From IMG/VR virus record IMGVR_UViG_2693429508_000013: DNA of 12,511 nucleotides; one strand, 5' to 3'. Below the pieces are notes generated by a model. That model saw only the letters and a program-made list of their open reading frames with translations. It had not been told where the DNA came from and ran no database searches. The position numbers and the translations under genes are program-made. The first letter of the stretch is position 1, and each line of letters opens with the position of its first letter. This DNA is from a virus (taxonomy: Duplodnaviria > Heunggongvirae > Uroviricota > Caudoviricetes). Positions 183 through 10,859 of this stretch are shown one piece after another.

Positions 183-1265
183 TCATTTTCTCTGGCTGAT
201 CTTTACCGGATAACCATCCCGAAGATCAATTAAGTGCTCCGGTTCAGAAGCAAACCATGCATAAGATCCCCACGCCAATTCTGGTATTGCCTTTTTAAAA
301 GGCAGAGCACTTCTGTCCATAAATGCCGTAAGGAATGCAAGATTTTTCTCGCTGAACCCAGCGTCAATAGCCAAATGAGTGAGAGTAACTTTTCGTTCCC
401 TGTTTATAGGCCCATCTGTCGCAACTACTTCAGTGAAAACTACAAGCATGTCCGAACCCGTTCGGTCCTCTCCCAAATCAATCAAAATAATATCTGGAAG
501 TGCTTTTGAGGCATCAATATTCAGCCCCAATGCTTTTGCCAATACATCATCCTGAGCAACAACTTTATTCCCGGATTCAGACAACCAGAGCACAGTTGGA
601 TTCTTAAGAAAATTAGGAGCAAAAACTTCGATGACGGCCTTAGCTATTGTACTTGACGGGCCCGGAGCTAAAGTTCTCTTCTCTCCATTTGGGAAAGTGA
701 CGACTACGGCATCAGCAGCAATCACTGCCCCTGATTTCAATAAACGCAACCTAGCAAGAGCGGCTTTGTTCAAATGATTTTCTTGCCAGGAACTTATTGC
801 ACTCAGCAGCGAATCTCCTTCAAGCCCGGCATCAAAGAGTGCTGCAAAAGAGCGATTCAAACTGTAACGAGGACGAGAGGATGTGGTGGGTATACCTTTA
901 CGCTCAACAATTGCATTGCAAGGTATTAGGCCATTTTTTATAGTTTCATCACGTATTGGCTCACGCGTATTTTCCGCATACCATGCATCAGCAGGCCTTA
1001 TCTTTTGTTTAGAGAAAGTCATCTTTACCCAGCTTTCTCTGGACGCATCATCAGTAAGAGCAGCCTGCGAATCTCCCATACTTACAACCTGGCTGGGCCT
1101 TATCCATCGCCCCAGCCCCTCAACCGCACCAGCATAAAACATGACAAAAATTGTTTTTGCAGCTATTTCCCGAATTAAATATCCACGATTCTCAGTCCCT
1201 TCAGGGAAAATTAATTGTAATCTTTCCCGGATAACATTCAATGGGGGAACAACAGGCAGATTCAT
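183..1265 (-). CDS. Putative Type II restriction endonuclease, cognate to the upstream methyltransferase
   Basis: 360-aa ORF. Its ATG (1265-1263) overlaps the TGA stop of the methyltransferase gene (ATGA overlap on the minus strand), so M then R sit in one coupled operon. No methyltransferase motifs. The nuclease call rests on gene context and AT-rich cargo-like composition, not on a recognised catalytic motif. Confidence 0.55.
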   Translation of the reverse strand: MNLPVVPPLNVIRERLQLIFPEGTENRGYLIREIAAKTIFVMFYAGAVEGLGRWIRPSQVVSMGDSQAALTDDASRESWVKMTFSKQKIRPADAWYAENTREPIRDETIKNGLIPCNAIVERKGIPTTSSRPRYSLNRSFAALFDAGLEGDSLLSAISSWQENHLNKAALARLRLLKSGAVIAADAVVVTFPNGEKRTLAPGPSSTIAKAVIEVFAPNFLKNPTVLWLSESGNKVVAQDDVLAKALGLNIDASKALPDIILIDLGEDRTGSDMLVVFTEVVATDGPINRERKVTLTHLAIDAGFSEKNLAFLTAFMDRSALPFKKAIPELAWGSYAWFASEPEHLIDLRDGYPVKISQRK

Positions 1266-3094
1266 GCAATCATCACTCCATAGAAACCAGCGATAGTTCT
1301 CTCAATAATCCGTCTGTGGACGCCAGCATCAATTAACGATTGAATCTCCATCACCTGCTCCAGAGAAGGCAACGGGATTGAATTCAATTCATAGGCCGAA
1401 ACAGCAACACTTCCGCTTATACACCTGAACGCCCGATCGACAACATGCGAATTAAGTAGCATATCAATAACATCAGGGCGAACCGCAGAGAACAATCCGT
1501 TTGAATATACAATATTAATATGGTTTTCAACTACTACGCCACCAGTTTCATCTATAAATCCCTGAGGTAAAATTGCCGCTAAAATCCTTCTGTCCTGTTC
1601 CTTCGATGTTGTCCGCTGAACAAGCACACATTCAGATTTTGTCACAAGGAAACCCTGTTGTGGGGTTATATCGATATAGGGAACATGATTTTTTCTGTCT
1701 GCACTAAAACGAAAACCAGCTGAAGTTATTGATTCCGCCCAGACTAATGGGTAGCTATTTTTTCCTTTCGTCGTACGCAACTGCGACTTAAATCGATTCC
1801 AGACTAACTGACCTGTAGAGACTGAGTATCCCAGATCAGCTAAACGCGTAGACATCTGTTTTAATACATTAAGAAAACAGGCATCATCTTTAACGCGTGG
1901 CAAAAGCCACGTTGCTCCACCTTTTTCTATATCAACATTACCTATTTTCTCAATTTTTGCTTTGTTCAACCCCTTAGGGACAAGTGAGGATACCTGGGCC
2001 CGAACTTTATGTTCTCCCGCCTTGAATGCTGTCAACATTGTTTCCTGGAGAACATCGTCAAAGACCCCATCCCTGTCAGTGACGAAATCAAGGGCATACG
2101 GAGTAGTTTTTTCGGTCAAAAGGGTTCGCAGCGCGGTGAAATACTGCCCACCAAGAAAAGAAGTTGGCGTAAGAAATGCAATAACTCCTGTTTTCTCTTT
2201 AACCATGCGAACAGCTAAGTCGGTGAACAATCCATATAGATTTGCATGACCAAATAACGAACGAGAATATTTTTCTCTCGTTTTAATATCGAGAGTGACA
2301 CGTCCGTAAGGCGGATTCCCTACCACAAGATCATAACCAGAAAATTTATCTTGCTGAAGCGCATCAGCAACAATAATTGTATCTTCAGGCAATCTACGTT
2401 TTACCTTTACACATAGTGGCATTAGTACAGATTCGAGCAATACCAAACTCATCCAAGCCGCAAATGGATCGATTTCTATCCCCTTTAAACGACGACTGAT
2501 TCTCCTCAACATCCATTCAGGGGAAGACCCCTTGTCTTTTTTTAACATTCGAATGGCTACTGGTGCCAAAAATGCACCGCCACCACACGCAGGATCAATA
2601 ACCGATGCATGAGAAAAATCAACACCAGACTTTTCAGCCAGGTCCAAGAGACGCGCTACCAAAGGTGGGGGGGTATAGTAAGCCCCCAATTCCGAACGGT
2701 AAGCGGATGGCAGCATTACCGTATAAATTGACCCAATCAGATATCCAGCGTCCTCCGCCGGAAATTGAGCAATAAGCTCACCTGTTCGTTCAGCGAGCTC
2801 GCGTGCATCACATGGAATGTCTTCTATGTAAACAGTGTGCGGTACTGCCCTCATTTTAATGCTGCTTTTTTGCTTTTTTGCAAGGGTATCCCAATATGCA
2901 GCTACGATGCTGAAGCAGTATGAGCGGGCATGCATCAACCTTGACTGCCCGGTTTTGTAATTGCCCGCATAACCTTTGGCCATGGCTTTACAAGTTTGAT
3001 ATCTTTCCAGATTAGAAAACTCATTATCTGTAAAAAAATCAAAATGTTGCACATTCATAATGTAAAATCCTAATGTATCAAACATGCGGGCCAT
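1262..3094 (-). CDS. N6-adenine DNA methyltransferase, gamma class (Eco57I-like amino-MTase fold)
   Basis: 610-aa ORF with motif X (YYTPPPLV), motif I SAM-binding (VIDPACGGGAFL) and motif IV catalytic (DLVVGNPPYG) in the gamma-class order X-I-IV. The long C-terminal half is consistent with a target-recognition domain. ATG at 3094-3092. Confidence 0.88.
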   Translation of the reverse strand: MARMFDTLGFYIMNVQHFDFFTDNEFSNLERYQTCKAMAKGYAGNYKTGQSRLMHARSYCFSIVAAYWDTLAKKQKSSIKMRAVPHTVYIEDIPCDARELAERTGELIAQFPAEDAGYLIGSIYTVMLPSAYRSELGAYYTPPPLVARLLDLAEKSGVDFSHASVIDPACGGGAFLAPVAIRMLKKDKGSSPEWMLRRISRRLKGIEIDPFAAWMSLVLLESVLMPLCVKVKRRLPEDTIIVADALQQDKFSGYDLVVGNPPYGRVTLDIKTREKYSRSLFGHANLYGLFTDLAVRMVKEKTGVIAFLTPTSFLGGQYFTALRTLLTEKTTPYALDFVTDRDGVFDDVLQETMLTAFKAGEHKVRAQVSSLVPKGLNKAKIEKIGNVDIEKGGATWLLPRVKDDACFLNVLKQMSTRLADLGYSVSTGQLVWNRFKSQLRTTKGKNSYPLVWAESITSAGFRFSADRKNHVPYIDITPQQGFLVTKSECVLVQRTTSKEQDRRILAAILPQGFIDETGGVVVENHINIVYSNGLFSAVRPDVIDMLLNSHVVDRAFRCISGSVAVSAYELNSIPLPSLEQVMEIQSLIDAGVHRRIIERTIAGFYGVMIA

Positions 3095-6796: not shown

Positions 6797-7222
6797 TCAA
6801 TGTACTGCCACAGCATTTCCTGCCGGGCCACCACGGTTCATCTGATTGAAACCGGCGATTGCCACTGCGACAAAATCATCAGCGTCTCTCACCAGTCGTT
6901 CATGCGTCTCCACCAGTTCCCGAAAATAAGCTGAACTGTGGCTGCGCATTCGAGCCACCAGCGGAGGTGGCATTGCCCTTTCGATCGCAGGTAACAACGC
7001 CTGAATTTTTTCAACAGCGTCAGGGGTGTCTTTATCCAGCCAACGGAAAATCTTTTGGGTGTTGAGATAAAGCGTGTTGTGCTTGCTGTCGTTATGCAGA
7101 ACCGGAAACGTCATTCCCAGTTCGAAATAAACCCTGGTTATTTCAGCTGCCGGAACTTTTTCACCGTCCGGATGCGCCCAGGCTTTCATCGCCATGCGGA
7201 TGTGTTCATGCTTGATTTTCAT
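6797..7222 (-). CDS. ydaT: YdaT-like protein (CII-like regulator family of Rac-type prophages)
   Basis: 141 aa, MKIKHEHIRMAMKAWAHPDGEKVPAAEI...; recognised from memory as YdaT-like. Its ATG overlaps the TGA of the upstream Cro-like gene (ATGA at 7219-7222). Confidence 0.75.
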   Translation of the reverse strand: MKIKHEHIRMAMKAWAHPDGEKVPAAEITRVYFELGMTFPVLHNDSKHNTLYLNTQKIFRWLDKDTPDAVEKIQALLPAIERAMPPPLVARMRSHSSAYFRELVETHERLVRDADDFVAVAIAGFNQMNRGGPAGNAVAVH

Positions 7223-7482
7223 GAATCAACCCCCGCCGATGGTTGTGTGTTAGCCTGAAACTCAGCAGGCAAGCCGTCAGTTGGGTTGGGGTAGGTTTTA
7301 CTGTCAATCTCATGTGGGGTCACCACCCATCCCGTTGCTTCACACCAACGTAATATTTTTTCTCCTGTAAGTTTTGCACGCCCCGTTATAACGTGGCTGA
7401 CCATCCCTTGGGATGCGCCAACAATCTCAGCAAATGAACTCTGGGTTATATGAAAATGATGCAAATATTCTCCAAGATTCAT
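7219..7482 (-). CDS. ydaS: YdaS-like Cro-type HTH protein
   Basis: ATG at 7482-7480 (MNLGEYLHHFHITQSSFAEIVGASQGMVSHVITGRAKLTGEKILRW...); the track ORF starts at a TTG at 7509. 87 aa, single HTH. Divergent from the repressor gene across an operator-bearing intergenic region. Confidence 0.75.
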   Translation of the reverse strand: MNLGEYLHHFHITQSSFAEIVGASQGMVSHVITGRAKLTGEKILRWCEATGWVVTPHEIDSKTYPNPTDGLPAEFQANTQPSAGVDS

Positions 7483-7517
7483 AATCCGCCCTATGTGATG
7501 TGTTACCAATGCATAAT

Positions 7518-7559
7518 TAATAGCACTGTTATTTTTAAAAGTAAATAGTGATGCTATTT
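7518..7559. promoter_or_regulatory. OR-like operator pair in the divergent promoter region
   Basis: Two 17-bp palindromic sites separated by 8 bp: TAATAG-CACTG-TTATTT (7518-7534) and AAATAG-TGATG-CTATTT (7543-7559, perfect 6-5-6 palindrome). They lie between the divergent Cro-like and repressor starts. Confidence 0.55.
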
Positions 7560-7593
7560 CAAAGTGATTAGCAATCTTATTAGAATTGGATGT

Positions 7594-8094
7594 ATGAAAA
7601 GAAAATCATTGTCAGACACCGACCTCAACGCCGCCAGAAGACTGAAAGAAATCTGGATGGCAAAGAAATCTCAGTTGGGATTGACTCAGGAACGTGCGGC
7701 GGAAATTATGGGGTTTTCAACACAAGGGGCGGTAAGTCACTACCTAAATGGTCAAACCCCACTAAACCTTGAGGCTGTTCTAAAGTTTGCTGGCTTACTG
7801 AAAGTTCCCCCTGAGTCAATCAGGCCAGACATGGTAGATTTGCTGCAAATTGCAAGGATGTATTGTCGAGAACCACAGCAAGATAACATAGTCGCATTAC
7901 CAGCAGACACAGAACAAACAGAGGATGAACTACCGTTTGCCGTAGAGCCGATGGAACGAGATTTAATCCATACGTTCAGAGCTTTTCCGAAAGAAGATCA
8001 AGAACACATGCTTCAGGAGATGAAAGATAAAAAAGAATCAATGGATCGTACGGTTGCGCGGTGGTTAGCTGCACAAAAAGGCCGTCGCGCCTAA
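7594..8094 (+). CDS. Phage repressor-like HTH regulator without a peptidase S24 domain (PaaR-like)
   Basis: ATG at 7594 (MKRKSLSDTDLNAARRLKEIWMAKKSQLGLTQERAAEIMGFSTQGAVSHYLNG...); the track ORF starts at a GTG at 7564. cI/434-type N-terminal HTH, acidic C-terminus, no Ala-Gly/Ser-Lys LexA-like features. First gene of a three-gene unit ending in parE. Confidence 0.75.
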   Translation: MKRKSLSDTDLNAARRLKEIWMAKKSQLGLTQERAAEIMGFSTQGAVSHYLNGQTPLNLEAVLKFAGLLKVPPESIRPDMVDLLQIARMYCREPQQDNIVALPADTEQTEDELPFAVEPMERDLIHTFRAFPKEDQEHMLQEMKDKKESMDRTVARWLAAQKGRRA

Positions 8095-8113
8095 ATCAGA
8101 GGAGATATGTAAA

Positions 8114-8308
8114 ATGAGTACAGTCCTTTCCCCAATGGTTTCAGAATTTGAGACAGTTGAGCAAGAAAATAGTTACAACGAATGGCTGCGGGCCAAAGTA
8201 GCAGCAAGCCTCGCGGATCCCCGCCCGGCGATTCCGCATGATGAGGTAATGGCGGAAATGGAACAAATTATTGCCCAAATTGCTGCTGCAACTCACAGAG
8301 GTGAATAA
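8114..8308 (+). CDS. paaA: PaaA2-like antitoxin, partner of ParE
   Basis: 64 aa, MSTVLSPMVSEFETVEQENSYNEWLRAKVAASLADPRPAIPHDEV...; SD GAGGAG 9 nt upstream. Stop overlaps the parE start (TAATG). Confidence 0.7.
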   Translation: MSTVLSPMVSEFETVEQENSYNEWLRAKVAASLADPRPAIPHDEVMAEMEQIIAQIAAATHRGE

Positions 8309-8598
8309 TGTTACCCGTTTTATGGCTACCATCTGCTCGTGATGATTTGCGCCAGATCGTAGCCTACATAGCTAAAGAAAATCCCGCGGCAGCACGCAGA
8401 ATGAAAATTCGAATTGAAACATCCGTTTTGCCGCTCACAGAGCATCCTTACCTGTATCCTCCAAGCGAGCGAGTTCTTGGTCTTCGTGAAATTGTAACTC
8501 ATCCTAACTACATCATCCTTTACCGAGTAACAGCATCAAGCATAGAAGTAGTAAATATTGTGCATTCTCGAAGACAGTATCCAGGCAAAAACAGTTAA
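8308..8598 (+). CDS. parE: ParE/RelE-family toxin
   Basis: 96 aa, MLPVLWLPSARDDLRQIVAYIAKENPAAARRMKIRIETSV... HPNYIILYRV...; typical ParE length and conserved segments. Translationally coupled to the antitoxin. Confidence 0.85.
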   Translation: MLPVLWLPSARDDLRQIVAYIAKENPAAARRMKIRIETSVLPLTEHPYLYPPSERVLGLREIVTHPNYIILYRVTASSIEVVNIVHSRRQYPGKNS

Positions 8599-8614
8599 TT
8601 ATTCCCGCCGACAG

Positions 8615-8637
8615 AACCACCTTAGGGTGGTTTTTTC
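8615..8637 (+). terminator. Rho-independent terminator after parE
   Basis: Stem AACCACC / GGTGGTT with loop TTAG (8615-8632), followed by a T-run (to 8636). Confidence 0.6.
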
Positions 8638-8652
8638 TTGCCCCAACAAAAA

Positions 8653-8694
8653 CAATAGCGATGCTATTTACATCAAAAAATAATGATGCTATTG
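8653..8694. promoter_or_regulatory. OL-like operator pair upstream of the rightward dicB-type operon
   Basis: Two 17-bp sites separated by 8 bp: CAATAG-CGATG-CTATTT (8653-8669) and AAATAA-TGATG-CTATTG (8678-8694). Same half-site consensus and spacing as the 7518-7559 pair. Embedded in a larger inverted symmetry AACAATAGC ... GCTATTGTT (8651-8696). Confidence 0.55.
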
Positions 8695-8875
8695 TTTCAG
8701 GCGTCAACCCACCCCGCCCCACAGAATGCAGGGCAATACTTCGAGTTACCAGACAGTGGTCAGGGGTTAAGTAGCCAGCCCGAGGCGTAAGAACATGACG
8801 GCAGGGTTCAATCTTTAACTATGCAGCAGGTTTTTTGTTCCGCCACCCCGGCGTTAAGGGGAAATGAGGTCAGCA

Positions 8876-9027
8876 TGGATACTATCGATCTTGGCAACAA
8901 CGAATCTCTGGTGTGCGGCGTGTTCCCTAACCAGGATGGAACGTTTACCGCCATGACGTATACCAAAAGCAAAACGTTTAAAACCGAATCTGGCGCGCGT
9001 TGCTGGTTAGCCAGAAACACTGACTGA
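8876..9027 (+). CDS. Small hypothetical protein (YdfA-like by position and size)
   Basis: ATG at 8876 with SD GAGG 6 nt upstream. 50 aa, MDTIDLGNNESLVCGVFPNQDGTFTAMTYTKSKTFK.... First gene after the OL-like operators. A longer start at 8821 lacks an SD. Confidence 0.5.
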
Positions 9028-9814: not shown

Positions 9815-10301
9815 AAAGTGAATTTTGTGATGCGGTGAATGCGGCTCAGCGCACGCGGCACAGTTAAAAAGCGATTAGTTCCCCCGTATCGGGTGGTTAT
9901 GGGTTTCCCTGTATCCGGCGTTAATTGTTAACTGGTTAACGTCACCTGGAGGCACCAGGCACCGCATCAACAAAGTTCACTTCGGTGATGAAAGGAAAGA
10001 GAAAATGTTGAATGTAGCTATTGAAAACCAGAACGGGTGGAATTATAGTGCACCTGCACCTTATAAAACGGGTGCCGGGCGTGGAAACCCGAACGTTACT
10101 CGAGCGCATAGCCGCGCTGAAGCGGTTTTTTTATGCGTAATGCACAGCTCCATTCAAATTATGGTGGGATGTGCAGGGCAGTCGCAAGACTGGCCGGGTT
10201 CTCGAGTGACCGGTATTTCCACCCCTGTACGTCTCACCACCCTTATGGTCGTGGAAAACCTCGGTGGTGAGTTAATTAACTTATCACTCGAGGATGCCAT
10301 C

Positions 10302-10859
10302 ATGGCTACTATCCCTGCCCTTTCTCACCCTGACGTAACCATCGAAAATGGTCGCGCTGTCACTACGTCTATTGCGATCGCAGAGTTCTTTGGCAAGCGT
10401 CACGACAATGTGTTACGTGCCATCGCAAATACTGAATGCTCACCTGAATTTAACGCCCTCAATTTTGAGGACGTCACCTACACTGACGCCAAAGGCGAAA
10501 AACGCCCGATGTACCAAATCACCAAAAACGGCTTCGTTTTCCTGGTGATGGGATTCACTGGCAAAAAAGCCGCTGCATTTAAAGAAGCCTACATTGCTGA
10601 GTTCGATCGCATGGAGGCCGAACTGCGCCAGAATAACACCCCACCCACTGACAAAATAATTCCAGGCGATGGCCGCACCCTGGTTGTTCACTTCGACGAA
10701 CGCGGCAACATCAGATTCACCGAAACCGTTCCTGATGGCGCACGGGTCTGTACCATGGAGACTTTCCGGTTTTATCTGGAAGAACAGGGATGGACTCTTG
10801 TTAACCGGGGCGCAATTAAAAATATGACTGTAGAGCAATTACTCAAAATTCATTGTTGA
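10302..10859 (+). CDS. rha: Rha-family phage regulatory protein
   Basis: ATG at 10302 with SD AGGA 7 nt upstream. 185 aa, MATIPALSHPDVTIENGRAVTTSIAIAEFFGKRHDNVLRAIAN ... YQITKNGFVFLVMGFTGKKAAAFKEAYIAEFDRME, i.e. a Rha N-terminal domain signature. An in-frame upstream ATG at 10005 would add 99 non-Rha-like residues. Confidence 0.8.
   Translation: MATIPALSHPDVTIENGRAVTTSIAIAEFFGKRHDNVLRAIANTECSPEFNALNFEDVTYTDAKGEKRPMYQITKNGFVFLVMGFTGKKAAAFKEAYIAEFDRMEAELRQNNTPPTDKIIPGDGRTLVVHFDERGNIRFTETVPDGARVCTMETFRFYLEEQGWTLVNRGAIKNMTVEQLLKIHC

Follow-up and report, generated by a model that had tools for sequence, protein, structure and literature searches.

Among the genes of a tailed-phage sequence (Duplodnaviria; Heunggongvirae; Uroviricota; Caudoviricetes; IMG/VR record IMGVR_UViG_2693429508_000013), four short palindromes surround a repressor gene and a toxin-antitoxin operon. 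This raises the question of what the repeats are, and which proteins read them. We analyzed the whole stretch of 12,511 nucleotides, hereafter the window. Its immunity region runs in the order ydaT, cro-like gene, OR, repressor gene, paaA2-parE, terminator and OL/PL, and its cargo, paaA2-parE (8114-8598), sits between the repressor gene and OL (Table 1). We consider it very likely, judging from sequence and comparative evidence, that the palindromes serve as OR and OL, the operators of a lambdoid prophage immunity switch.

Two pairs of palindromes around the repressor operon

The original prediction held that four palindromes of 17 bp, AAATAG-N5-CTATTT, form two identically spaced pairs resembling OR and OL. 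We found all four where it had placed them, and in both pairs the gap is indeed 8 bp, equivalent to 25 bp centre to centre. The 111-bp gap between the divergent Cro-like and repressor genes (7483-7593) holds the first pair. The second was said to lie just past the parE terminator, and the hairpin (8613-8635) with its U-run directly precedes the segment 8653-8694. The same motif could have been equally dense in other places, a concern raised together with the prediction; within the window, a search for AAATAG-N5-CTATTT at up to two mismatches returned no match beyond the four. None of 200 dinucleotide shuffles of the window reached four or more matches, and two pairs appeared in none of 3000 Markov simulations. 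We also scored the window with a matrix trained on the sites of other loci only, leaving out the window's own: the four sites reach 19-23 bits, and no other position exceeds 4.8 bits.

Table 1. Coordinates of genes, operator sites, promoters and terminator in the immunity region of the window (sites and promoters are predictions)
Feature	Position	Strand	Description
YdaT (CII analogue)	6797-7222	-	Pfam YdaT 5e-9; 77% identical to CP-933P YdaT
YdaT operator OM	7212-7229	.	TTGATTTTCATGAATCAA; exact match to TTGATT-N6-AATCAA
Cro-like HTH protein, 87 aa	7219-7482	-	HTH; divergent from repressor
PR-like promoter	7517-7545	-	TTTACT (7545-7540), 17-bp spacer, TGC + TATTAA (7522-7517); read from sequence
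OR1-like site	7518-7534	.	TAATAGCACTGTTATTT; 2 mismatches; matrix 21.3 bits; kept in all motif-bearing loci
OR2-like site	7543-7559	.	AAATAGTGATGCTATTT; 0 mismatches (perfect match); matrix 22.3 bits
PRM-like promoter	7558-7586	+	TTCAAA-17-TAGAAT
Candidate weak OR3-like site	7566-7582	.	GATTAGCAATCTTATTA; positional conservation across loci; matrix 4.0 bits
Repressor, 166 aa	7594-8094	+	N-terminal HTH (residues 1-90), disordered linker, C-terminal helical hairpin
PaaA2-like antitoxin	8114-8308	+	Pfam PaaA2 3e-23
ParE toxin	8308-8598	+	Pfam ParE_toxin 1.8e-17
Intrinsic terminator, repressor-TA operon	8613-8640	+	hairpin 8613-8635, then U-run; dG -15.1, z -3.3
OL2-like site	8653-8669	.	CAATAGCGATGCTATTT; 1 mismatch; matrix 22.7 bits
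PL-like promoter	8667-8695	+	TTTACA-17-TGC-TATTGT, TG extension; promoter scan
OL1-like site	8678-8694	.	AAATAATGATGCTATTG; 2 mismatches; matrix 19.1 bits

Comparison across loci refined the shape of the motif. The 28 distinct sites from eight loci all agree at positions 2-5 and 13-16, giving an invariant AATA/TATT core, and the centre is variable and nearly free. The same pattern of invariant half-site cores and drifting centres is seen both in relatives of about 80% identity and in much more distant loci. The palindromes themselves thus stand as predicted, but not their strict division into 6-5-6 half-sites: the conserved unit, AATA(G/A)(C/T)-N3-(G/A)(C/T)TATT, is nearer to an 8-1-8 palindrome. 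Similarly, three of the four central pentamers in the window do read (T/C)GATG; the relatives do not keep this centre, which therefore has no demonstrable meaning. We regard the similarity as incidental and dropped it as a meaningful element.

Promoter overlap and a candidate third site

PR and PL face outward and have one common layout, in which the outer sites overlap the -10 and the inner sites the -35 element. At OR, the left half of OR1 (plus strand) contains the -10 of PR (minus strand). OR2 overlaps the -35 of PR and adjoins that of PRM, its centre (7551) lying at about -42/-43 from the predicted PRM start. The distal cluster carries the same operator sequence at PL, beyond the repressor operon and its terminator: the right end of OL2 overlaps the PL -35, and the right half of OL1 contains the extended -10. 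PR was not listed by the promoter scanner because position 6 of its -10 is A; we assigned it by alignment to PL, with which it shares hexamers and spacing over about 45 bp. PR is predicted to drive the cro-like gene, ydaT and the replication genes, and PL the ydfA-like (DUF1391) rightward operon. The leader after PL is conserved; it had no Rfam match near threshold, and a covariation test found a compensatory change in one of its 38 predicted pairs. The -10 of PRM ends 7 nt before the repressor ATG, and a distance of 6-7 nt is kept in all loci, so the repressor mRNA is probably leaderless. Further to the left, the YdaT operator OM, published as TTGATT-N6-AATCAA (PMC9986795), spans the stop codon of the cro-like gene and the start codon of ydaT.

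OR probably carries a third, weak site over PRM, at 23 bp from OR2, where it overlaps the PRM spacer and -10. Its offset and its deviation from the motif (A3 to T) do not change from locus to locus; in distant loci the sequence is GATTAGTAAAACTATTA. This conservation is confounded with that of the PRM promoter, and the score of the site is at background level in the window. We therefore retain it as a positionally conserved candidate only, as the matrix lends it no support. The original prediction did not include this site. At OL, a third site was searched for by eye and by matrix and none was found. The operator count is consequently two strong sites plus one weak candidate at OR, and two sites at OL.

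Co-inheritance of the motif with the DNA-binding proteins

Related loci were collected by exact-protein look-up, and the locus of prophage CP-933P (L007) was reconstructed from published primer sequences. A motif search of related prophages, which had been suggested along with the prediction, recovered the same pairs at the same positions wherever the repressor N-terminal domain is shared: all loci with this domain (67-100% identity) have both. In those with a 67-85% identical domain, one pair precedes the repressor ATG by 35 nt and the other follows the operon, with a pair spacing of 24-26 bp. The operator positions are the same across loci with unrelated flanks, and the cargo of motif-bearing loci is ParE, HigB-HigA, HipA_2 plus DUF3037, or none. 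The Cro-like proteins of these loci are 61-85% identical with a conserved helix, and are replaced where the motif is replaced. CP-933P and two further loci (L017 and L018), which have a different HTH domain, gave zero motif matches; all three retain YdaT, PaaA2-ParE and a homologous repressor C-terminal tail. Inheritance of the motif thus follows the N-terminal domain of the repressor and the Cro-like protein, and not the cargo.

The repressor matches only HTH_3/HTH_31 in Pfam and has no S24 peptidase domain. Lacking such an S24/LexA autocleavage domain, it is not expected to undergo RecA-mediated induction in the manner of lambda. The N-terminal domain is a five-helix HTH with an N-terminal arm, homologous to residues 1-92 of lambda cI (phmmer against 1lmb, E 2.9e-9). 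The predicted fold matches the lambda cI N-terminal domain with Foldseek TM 0.81-0.93 (target-normalised), rmsd 1.1-2.1 A and 37-40% identity. A sequence search of solved structures returned no PaaR2 entry, its sole match being the lambda cI N-terminal domain. In the sequence alignment to lambda cI, the acidic repressor residues E33 and E37 fall on the lambda positive-control residues E34 and D38. Across 14 homologues, the recognition helix, TQGAVSHY.N, does not vary. At the other end of the protein, the model has residues 119-165 forming a helical hairpin. The only part that aligns with PaaR2 is residues 123-166 (PaaR2 residues 80-123; 52% identity over 44 residues), a similarity from which we extrapolate that the repressor may oligomerise through its C-terminal tail. 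The HTH of the Cro-like protein is in turn similar to that of the repressor (35% identity over 51 aa, E 2e-7), with a recognition helix, SQGMVSH, that resembles TQGAVSH.

These similarities bear on whether both proteins use the sites. The four palindromes might serve the repressor alone, with the Cro-like protein binding elsewhere or acting, for example, as an anti-repressor, and with no competition for shared operators. Nothing in the sequence proves that the sites are shared, and the CP-933P study did not pin down which exact sequences PaaR2 and YdaS bind. However, the homology of the two HTH domains, with near-identical helix starts, the co-inheritance of the Cro-like protein with the motif, and the overlap of the YdaS and PaaR2 footprints in CP-933P make this arrangement unlikely.

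Less probable still is that the repeats reflect only a duplicated promoter, an ancestral -35/-10 cassette common to PR and PL and conserved for RNA polymerase. The alignment of the two promoters is what such a duplication would leave. Moreover, the -10 takes in the invariant TATT of the right half-sites, and the -35 takes in the CTATTTAC/CTATTGAC end. Since the cores overlap these elements, some of the half-site conservation could be promoter constraint. Yet the promoter-distal AAATAG halves, which contain no promoter elements, are equally invariant; exact dyad symmetry is preserved at a fixed 5-bp gap; and the whole motif is missing from heteroimmune loci that retain PR/PL-type promoters at these positions. 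An invariant recognition helix together with an invariant half-site points instead to a protein-DNA code.

The palindromes also bracket the toxin-antitoxin operon, and classical type II systems have palindromic operators at the operon promoter, so that the sites could be autoregulatory operators for the PaaA2-ParE complex. We give this very little credence: both pairs are present in HigBA, HipA and cargo-free loci, they are missing from PaaA2-ParE loci with another repressor, and PaaA2 has no DNA-binding domain (PMC8630535). Finally, the control regions are AT-rich (38% GC versus 47% for the window) and the motif is not enriched at a threshold of three mismatches, but chance clustering of near-palindromes in intergenic DNA does not explain the four sites, whose positions persist across unrelated flanks and for which none of 20,000 simulations with the local composition gave four matches or one pair per region.

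A probable lambda-like switch on the chassis of CP-933P

Returning to the operator reading, we propose that dimers of the 166-aa repressor would bind each 17-bp site by the lambda-cI-like HTH domain, placing one recognition helix on each AATA(G/A) half-site. Filling OR1 and OR2 would block leftward transcription from PR, and filling OL1 and OL2 would block rightward transcription from PL. The dimer at OR2 would probably activate PRM, with its predicted leaderless transcript. This promoter would transcribe the repressor gene with paaA2-parE, and the toxin-antitoxin pair would thus be expressed in the lysogenic state. The weak third site over PRM may provide negative autoregulation, and it may also be the site favoured by the Cro-like protein, for which we predict binding to the same sites as the repressor. 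With the two pairs 1.1 kb apart, the four dimers could form an OR-OL loop via the PaaR2-like C-terminal module.

The closest known architecture is that of CP-933P (Sp12) of E. coli O157:H7, a cryptic prophage that carries PaaR2-PaaA2-ParE2 with YdaS and YdaT; the experimental evidence for it comes from EMSA, DNase I footprinting and gfp fusions (Jurenas et al. 2021, PMC8630535). There, PaaR2 and YdaS bind OR, and PR, PRM and PL are repressed; paaR2 is leaderless, and PaaR2 octamerises and is likewise reported to have no S24-type autocleavage domain (PMC8630535). The two loci share the order ydaT, cro-like gene, OR, repressor gene, paaA2, parE, OL/PL. YdaT, PaaA2 and ParE of the window are 77%, 75% and 67% identical to their CP-933P counterparts, the YdaT operator is identical, and identity exceeds 90% in the leader that follows PL. 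Also in common are the C-terminal 44 residues of the repressor, a -10-to-ATG geometry consistent with a leaderless repressor mRNA, and a single promoter cassette for PR and PL. In contrast, the DNA-binding domain of the repressor is unrelated, being lambda-cI-like in the window (in a protein of 166 aa versus 124 aa), and blastp gives no match between the Cro-like protein and YdaS. The OR/OL sequences are unrelated as well, with AATAG-N5-CTATT in the window versus 18-bp inverted repeats of the GTTTAGTAA type in CP-933P, where four inverted repeats or three operators are described at OR and three at OL.

With lambda, the locus shares a homologous repressor N-terminal domain (about 40% identity) and 17-bp dyad-symmetric operators with neighbours 23-25 bp apart. 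At both PR and PL, O1 covers the -10 and O2 the -35, and OR2 adjoins the PRM -35. The cargo slot between the repressor gene and OL is common to both, occupied in lambda by rexAB, and the lambda cI mRNA from PRM is leaderless. Unlike in lambda, the repressor has a short helical hairpin in place of an S24/LexA-type C-terminal domain, the recognition helix and half-site differ (AATAG versus TATCAC), OL has two sites, and YdaT takes the place of CII. The prophages Rac (RacR-YdaS-YdaT) and Qin (DicA-DicC, ydfABC-dicB) of E. coli K-12 have a similar layout, a divergent repressor/cro-like pair followed by ydaT. In close relatives the rightward operon is, as in Qin, of the ydfA/ydfB/ydfC/dicB type. 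The OR/OL-like layout of the original prediction is thus borne out by promoter overlap, by the phylogenetic footprint, by co-inheritance and by the CP-933P precedent.

It is possible, though rather doubtful, that repressors of this kind are built of interchangeable parts. One part, also present in PaaR2, would be a portable C-terminal helical module some 45 residues long, joined to at least three unrelated HTH domains, with some proteins (244-255 aa) carrying two such domains in tandem. Four dimers may come together through this module as an octamer that loops the two operator pairs round a cargo slot holding ParE, HigBA, HipA or nothing. If this hypothesis is true, then the cargo would be mechanically coupled, in both its expression and its retention, to the lysogenic loop. 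A new immunity type would then arise when one recombination in the linker is accompanied by exchange of the cro gene and of the two operator clusters, with the cargo and the oligomerisation logic left intact.

On the operator reading, which we consider very likely, the locus is an undescribed immunity type of a well-understood kind of switch, with no new mechanism. It offers a testable operator code, aAATA(G/A)(C/T)-N3-(G/A)(C/T)TATTt, predicted to be read by the helix TQGAVSHY.N. It also extends the CP-933P paradigm, a toxin-antitoxin pair expressed from PRM under a cI-like repressor, to the same chassis with swapped DNA-binding specificity and cargo. This should help in predicting superinfection immunity groups, and in explaining how toxin-antitoxin or defence cargo is wired into prophage switches.

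Tblastn against deposited phages gave nothing above 60% identity (the best match was lambda cI, at 31%), and thus no characterised or isolated phage with this immunity type in the collection searched. A repressor search of genome contigs gave no confirmed relative. Features annotated 'cI' and 'DicC' in related phage records matched the flanks only when these records were aligned to the window. Our literature search on YdaS, YdaT, the operators and the repressor found no paper on this operator type, and that for paaR1 returned only papers on type VI secretion PAAR proteins. Among bacterial hosts, about 1.3% of complete E. coli genomes have the immunity type, which also occurs in Shigella sonnei (with 100%-identical proteins), E. 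albertii and Salmonella.

Probable operator pairs and the predicted promoters they cover

The original prediction that two operator pairs bracket the repressor-TA module in an OR/OL-like layout is supported, with corrections, by conservation, co-inheritance, promoter overlap and the layout of CP-933P, the cryptic prophage of E. coli O157:H7. All four palindromes lie exactly where they had been claimed, and they are the sole matches to AAATAG-N5-CTATTT with at most two mismatches in 12.5 kb. Shuffled versions of the window contained 0.66 matches on average, and none of 200 contained four or more. When three mismatches are allowed, the motif becomes indistinct from background, and thus the signal depends on the four good sites. 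Two pairs with 20-30 bp spacing arose in none of 3000 Markov simulations of the window, and four hits, or one pair per region, in none of 20000 simulations that reproduced the AT-rich base composition of both control regions. With a weight matrix built from the sites of other loci only, leaving out those of the window, the four sites score 19-23 bits and the next best window position 4.8 bits. An independent repeat finder recovered both pairs as a single 47-nt repeat, with copies 1135 bp apart.

Features of the immunity region and its flanks
Feature	Coordinates	Strand	Details
BsuBI/PstI-type restriction endonuclease	183-1265	-	end of leftward operon
Eco57I/N6_Mtase-type methyltransferase	1262-3094	-	end of leftward operon
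YdaT	6797-7222	-	Pfam
YdaT operator OM	7212-7229		TTGATTTTCATGAATCAA
Cro-like gene	7219-7482	-	HTH_3 (Pfam); start 7482 per RefSeq
PR (predicted)	7545-7540, 7522-7517	-	TTTACT, 17 bp, TGC, TATTAA
OR outer site	7518-7534		TAATAGCACTGTTATTT
OR inner site	7543-7559		AAATAGTGATGCTATTT
PRM (predicted)	7558-7563, 7581-7586	+	TTCAAA, 17 bp, TAGAAT
Weak OR3 (candidate)	7566-7582		overlaps PRM spacer and -10
Repressor	7594-8094	+	HTH_3/HTH_31 (Pfam)
PaaA2	8114-8308	+	Pfam
ParE	8308-8598	+	Pfam
Terminator hairpin and U-run	8613-8640		dG -15.1 kcal/mol, z -3.3
OL inner site	8653-8669		CAATAGCGATGCTATTT
PL (predicted)	8667-8672, 8690-8695	+	TTTACA, 17-bp spacer, TATTGT; TG extension
OL outer site	8678-8694		AAATAATGATGCTATTG
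Leader after PL	8706-8860		about 150 nt
DUF1391 (ydfA-like) gene	8821-9027		Pfam
ORF with Phage_ASH and Phage_pRha	10005-10859		Pfam
isrK	10056-10132	+	Rfam, 61 bits
C4 antisense RNA	10157-10244	+	Rfam, 77 bits

PR and PL are predicted to share the same cassette and are covered alike, the -10 by the outer site and the -35 by the inner site, as are the lambda promoters by OR1/OR2 and OL1/OL2. The repressor-TA operon is closed by its hairpin and U-run 13 bp ahead of the second operator pair. The PRM -10 ends 7 nt ahead of the repressor ATG, and 6-7 nt is kept in all loci; this short, conserved distance predicts a leaderless repressor mRNA. The lambda cI mRNA from PRM is also leaderless. A mechanical ORF list starts the repressor at GTG 7564 (176 aa), and one database entry gives it 178 aa; promoter geometry and RefSeq annotation instead favour ATG 7594 as the true start. 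The inner OR site is centred on 7551, about -42/-43 from the predicted PRM start; lambda CI bound at OR2 activates PRM from this same position. In the phmmer alignment to lambda cI, acidic residues E33 and E37 of the repressor fall opposite E34 and D38, which are positive-control residues in lambda. We infer that the repressor may activate PRM.

All loci also carry GATTAG-N5-(C/T)TATTA 23 bp past the inner OR site, with an A3-to-T departure from consensus that is identical in every locus. By analogy it would be a weak OR3, used for negative autoregulation and favoured by Cro; a score of just 4.0 bits in the window, and conservation inseparable from that of PRM, make it no more than a candidate. 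No third site was seen at OL.

Inheritance of the motif

Of 5426 complete E. coli genomes, 72 have this combination of OR and repressor; only two are at least 99% identical to the window, and the others about 78-80%. Across five of these ~78-80% relatives the half-sites are kept. The (T/C)GATG centres that had been singled out do occur, as TGATG and CGATG, but centres vary freely and also read CATCG, CAACA, CATTA and CACTG. We then traced distant repressors with the same N-terminal domain (67-76% identity) to their contigs: Salmonella diarizonae loci in which the cargo is HigB-HigA, metagenomic and Logan loci that combine HipA_2 and DUF3037 cargo with a two-HTH repressor of 244 aa, and cargo-less loci. 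Each has both pairs at the same positions, one ending 35 nt upstream of the repressor ATG and the other past the operon, with a pair spacing of 24-26 bp and an OR-OL distance of 977 to 2977 bp. Only three distinct matches fall outside control regions in the 18 loci together (two in L001, one common to L014 and L016). Two negative controls, CP-933P and L017/L018, contain zero matches. L017/L018 has PaaA2-ParE, YdaT and a 132-aa repressor with a different HTH domain, whose C-terminal region shares 62% identity with that of the window repressor over 64 residues.

All 28 distinct sites read AATA at positions 2-5 and TATT at 13-16; G predominates over A at position 6 and C over T at position 7 (1.2 bits), and there is almost no constraint at the centre. 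The repressor recognition helix, TQGAVSHY.N, does not vary among 14 homologues otherwise 46-90% identical to the window repressor. Wherever the motif is present, the Cro-like protein retains the helix SQGMVSHV and shows 61-85% identity to that of the window; the Cro-like HTH is homologous to that of the repressor (35% over 51 residues, E 2e-7). These comparisons indicate that the motif tracks the repressor and the Cro-like protein rather than the cargo, the pattern of inheritance expected of their operators. The Cro-like protein is predicted to share these sites with the repressor, and this is the least certain part of the reading.

Pure promoter duplication accounts neither for the invariance of the promoter-distal half-sites nor for the disappearance of the whole motif from heteroimmune loci. 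Autoregulation by the TA complex is excluded, since the motif is independent of cargo. Chance clustering is excluded by the empty simulations and the conserved positions.

The slot between the repressor gene and OL is equivalent in position to lambda rexAB. It holds PaaA2-ParE (window 8114-8598), HigB-HigA (Salmonella, L008:3112-3839), HipA_2 and DUF3037 (L011:3287-4860) or nothing (L014), and the same operator pairs frame it whatever the cargo.

A heteroimmune relative of CP-933P

This kind of system is already well known from lambda and CP-933P; in the literature searched, neither this operator sequence nor this repressor/Cro pair is described, and a search of deposited phages found none carrying the repressor. 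Work on CP-933P showed PaaR2, YdaS and YdaT to be CI, Cro and CII analogues, used EMSA, DNase I footprinting and gfp fusions to establish OR and OL/PL, and found paaR2 to be leaderless (PMC8630535), as we predict for the window repressor. We located this locus in an O157:H7 genome after rebuilding the paaR2 5' end from published primers. Its immunity region has the same layout as the window, and YdaT, PaaA2 and ParE are 77%, 75% and 67% identical. In contrast, only the final 44 residues of the repressor can be aligned to PaaR2 (52% identity), protein comparison detected no similarity between the Cro-like protein and YdaS, and the CP-933P operators are GTTTAGT-type repeats unrelated to AATAG-N5-CTATT, with no motif match in the locus. 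Relative to CP-933P, the window thus has an exchanged cro gene, exchanged operators in both clusters and an exchanged DNA-binding domain in its repressor, but it keeps YdaT, the TA cargo, the C-terminal tail of the repressor and the PL leader. This makes it a heteroimmune version of the same chassis. OM matches the published YdaT operator TTGATT-N6-AATCAA exactly (PMC9986795); it straddles the stop codon of the Cro-like gene and the start codon of ydaT, and is the same as the CP-933P site although the adjoining cro genes are unrelated.

The repressor N-terminal domain is homologous to that of lambda cI (phmmer E 2.9e-9); its AlphaFold model (pLDDT about 90) superimposes on the latter with a target-normalised TM of 0.81-0.93 and an rmsd of 1.1-2.1 A. 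Residues 93-112 are predicted to be disordered and 119-165 to form a helical hairpin. The repressor family shares a ~45-residue C-terminal tail, FPxEDQxxMLxEMKxKKESMxxxVARWLAAQKGRRA, and is modular: the tail is fused to three unrelated HTH domains (proteins of 124, 132 and 166 aa), and repressors of 244-255 aa carry two of these in tandem (set: P0013-P0023 from L011-L016, P0031/P0042/P0043 from L017, and PaaR2 from L007).

Predicted circuit and the PL operon

In the proposed circuit, repressor dimers at OR1/OR2 and OL1/OL2 would turn PR and PL off, and the OR2 dimer would stimulate PRM, with repressor and PaaA2-ParE co-transcribed as far as the terminator. The Cro-like protein would vie for the same sites and YdaT would work at its own operator. 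Four dimers on two pairs 1135 bp apart could assemble into an octameric loop, perhaps through the C-terminal module shared with PaaR2, for which octamerisation has been reported (PMC8630535). The repressor has no S24 peptidase domain, and derepression must therefore go by another route. In the PL operon, isrK and C4 lie back to back in the 5' part of the Phage_ASH/Phage_pRha ORF, and this arrangement with a Rha-family gene resembles the antirepressor control module of P1 immI. As a lead and nothing more, it could be an antirepressor induction route for this S24-less repressor.

The leader between PL and the first rightward gene (L007:4487-4650 in CP-933P, L017:3517-3679 in the other negative control) stays above 90% identity from about 8706 on, even where the loci compared are heteroimmune. 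This onset, ~11 bp past OL1, is a sharp mosaic junction. The leader has no Rfam match, and its conservation is too high for covariation to appear. The restriction endonuclease and methyltransferase genes that end the leftward operon are apparently prophage cargo.
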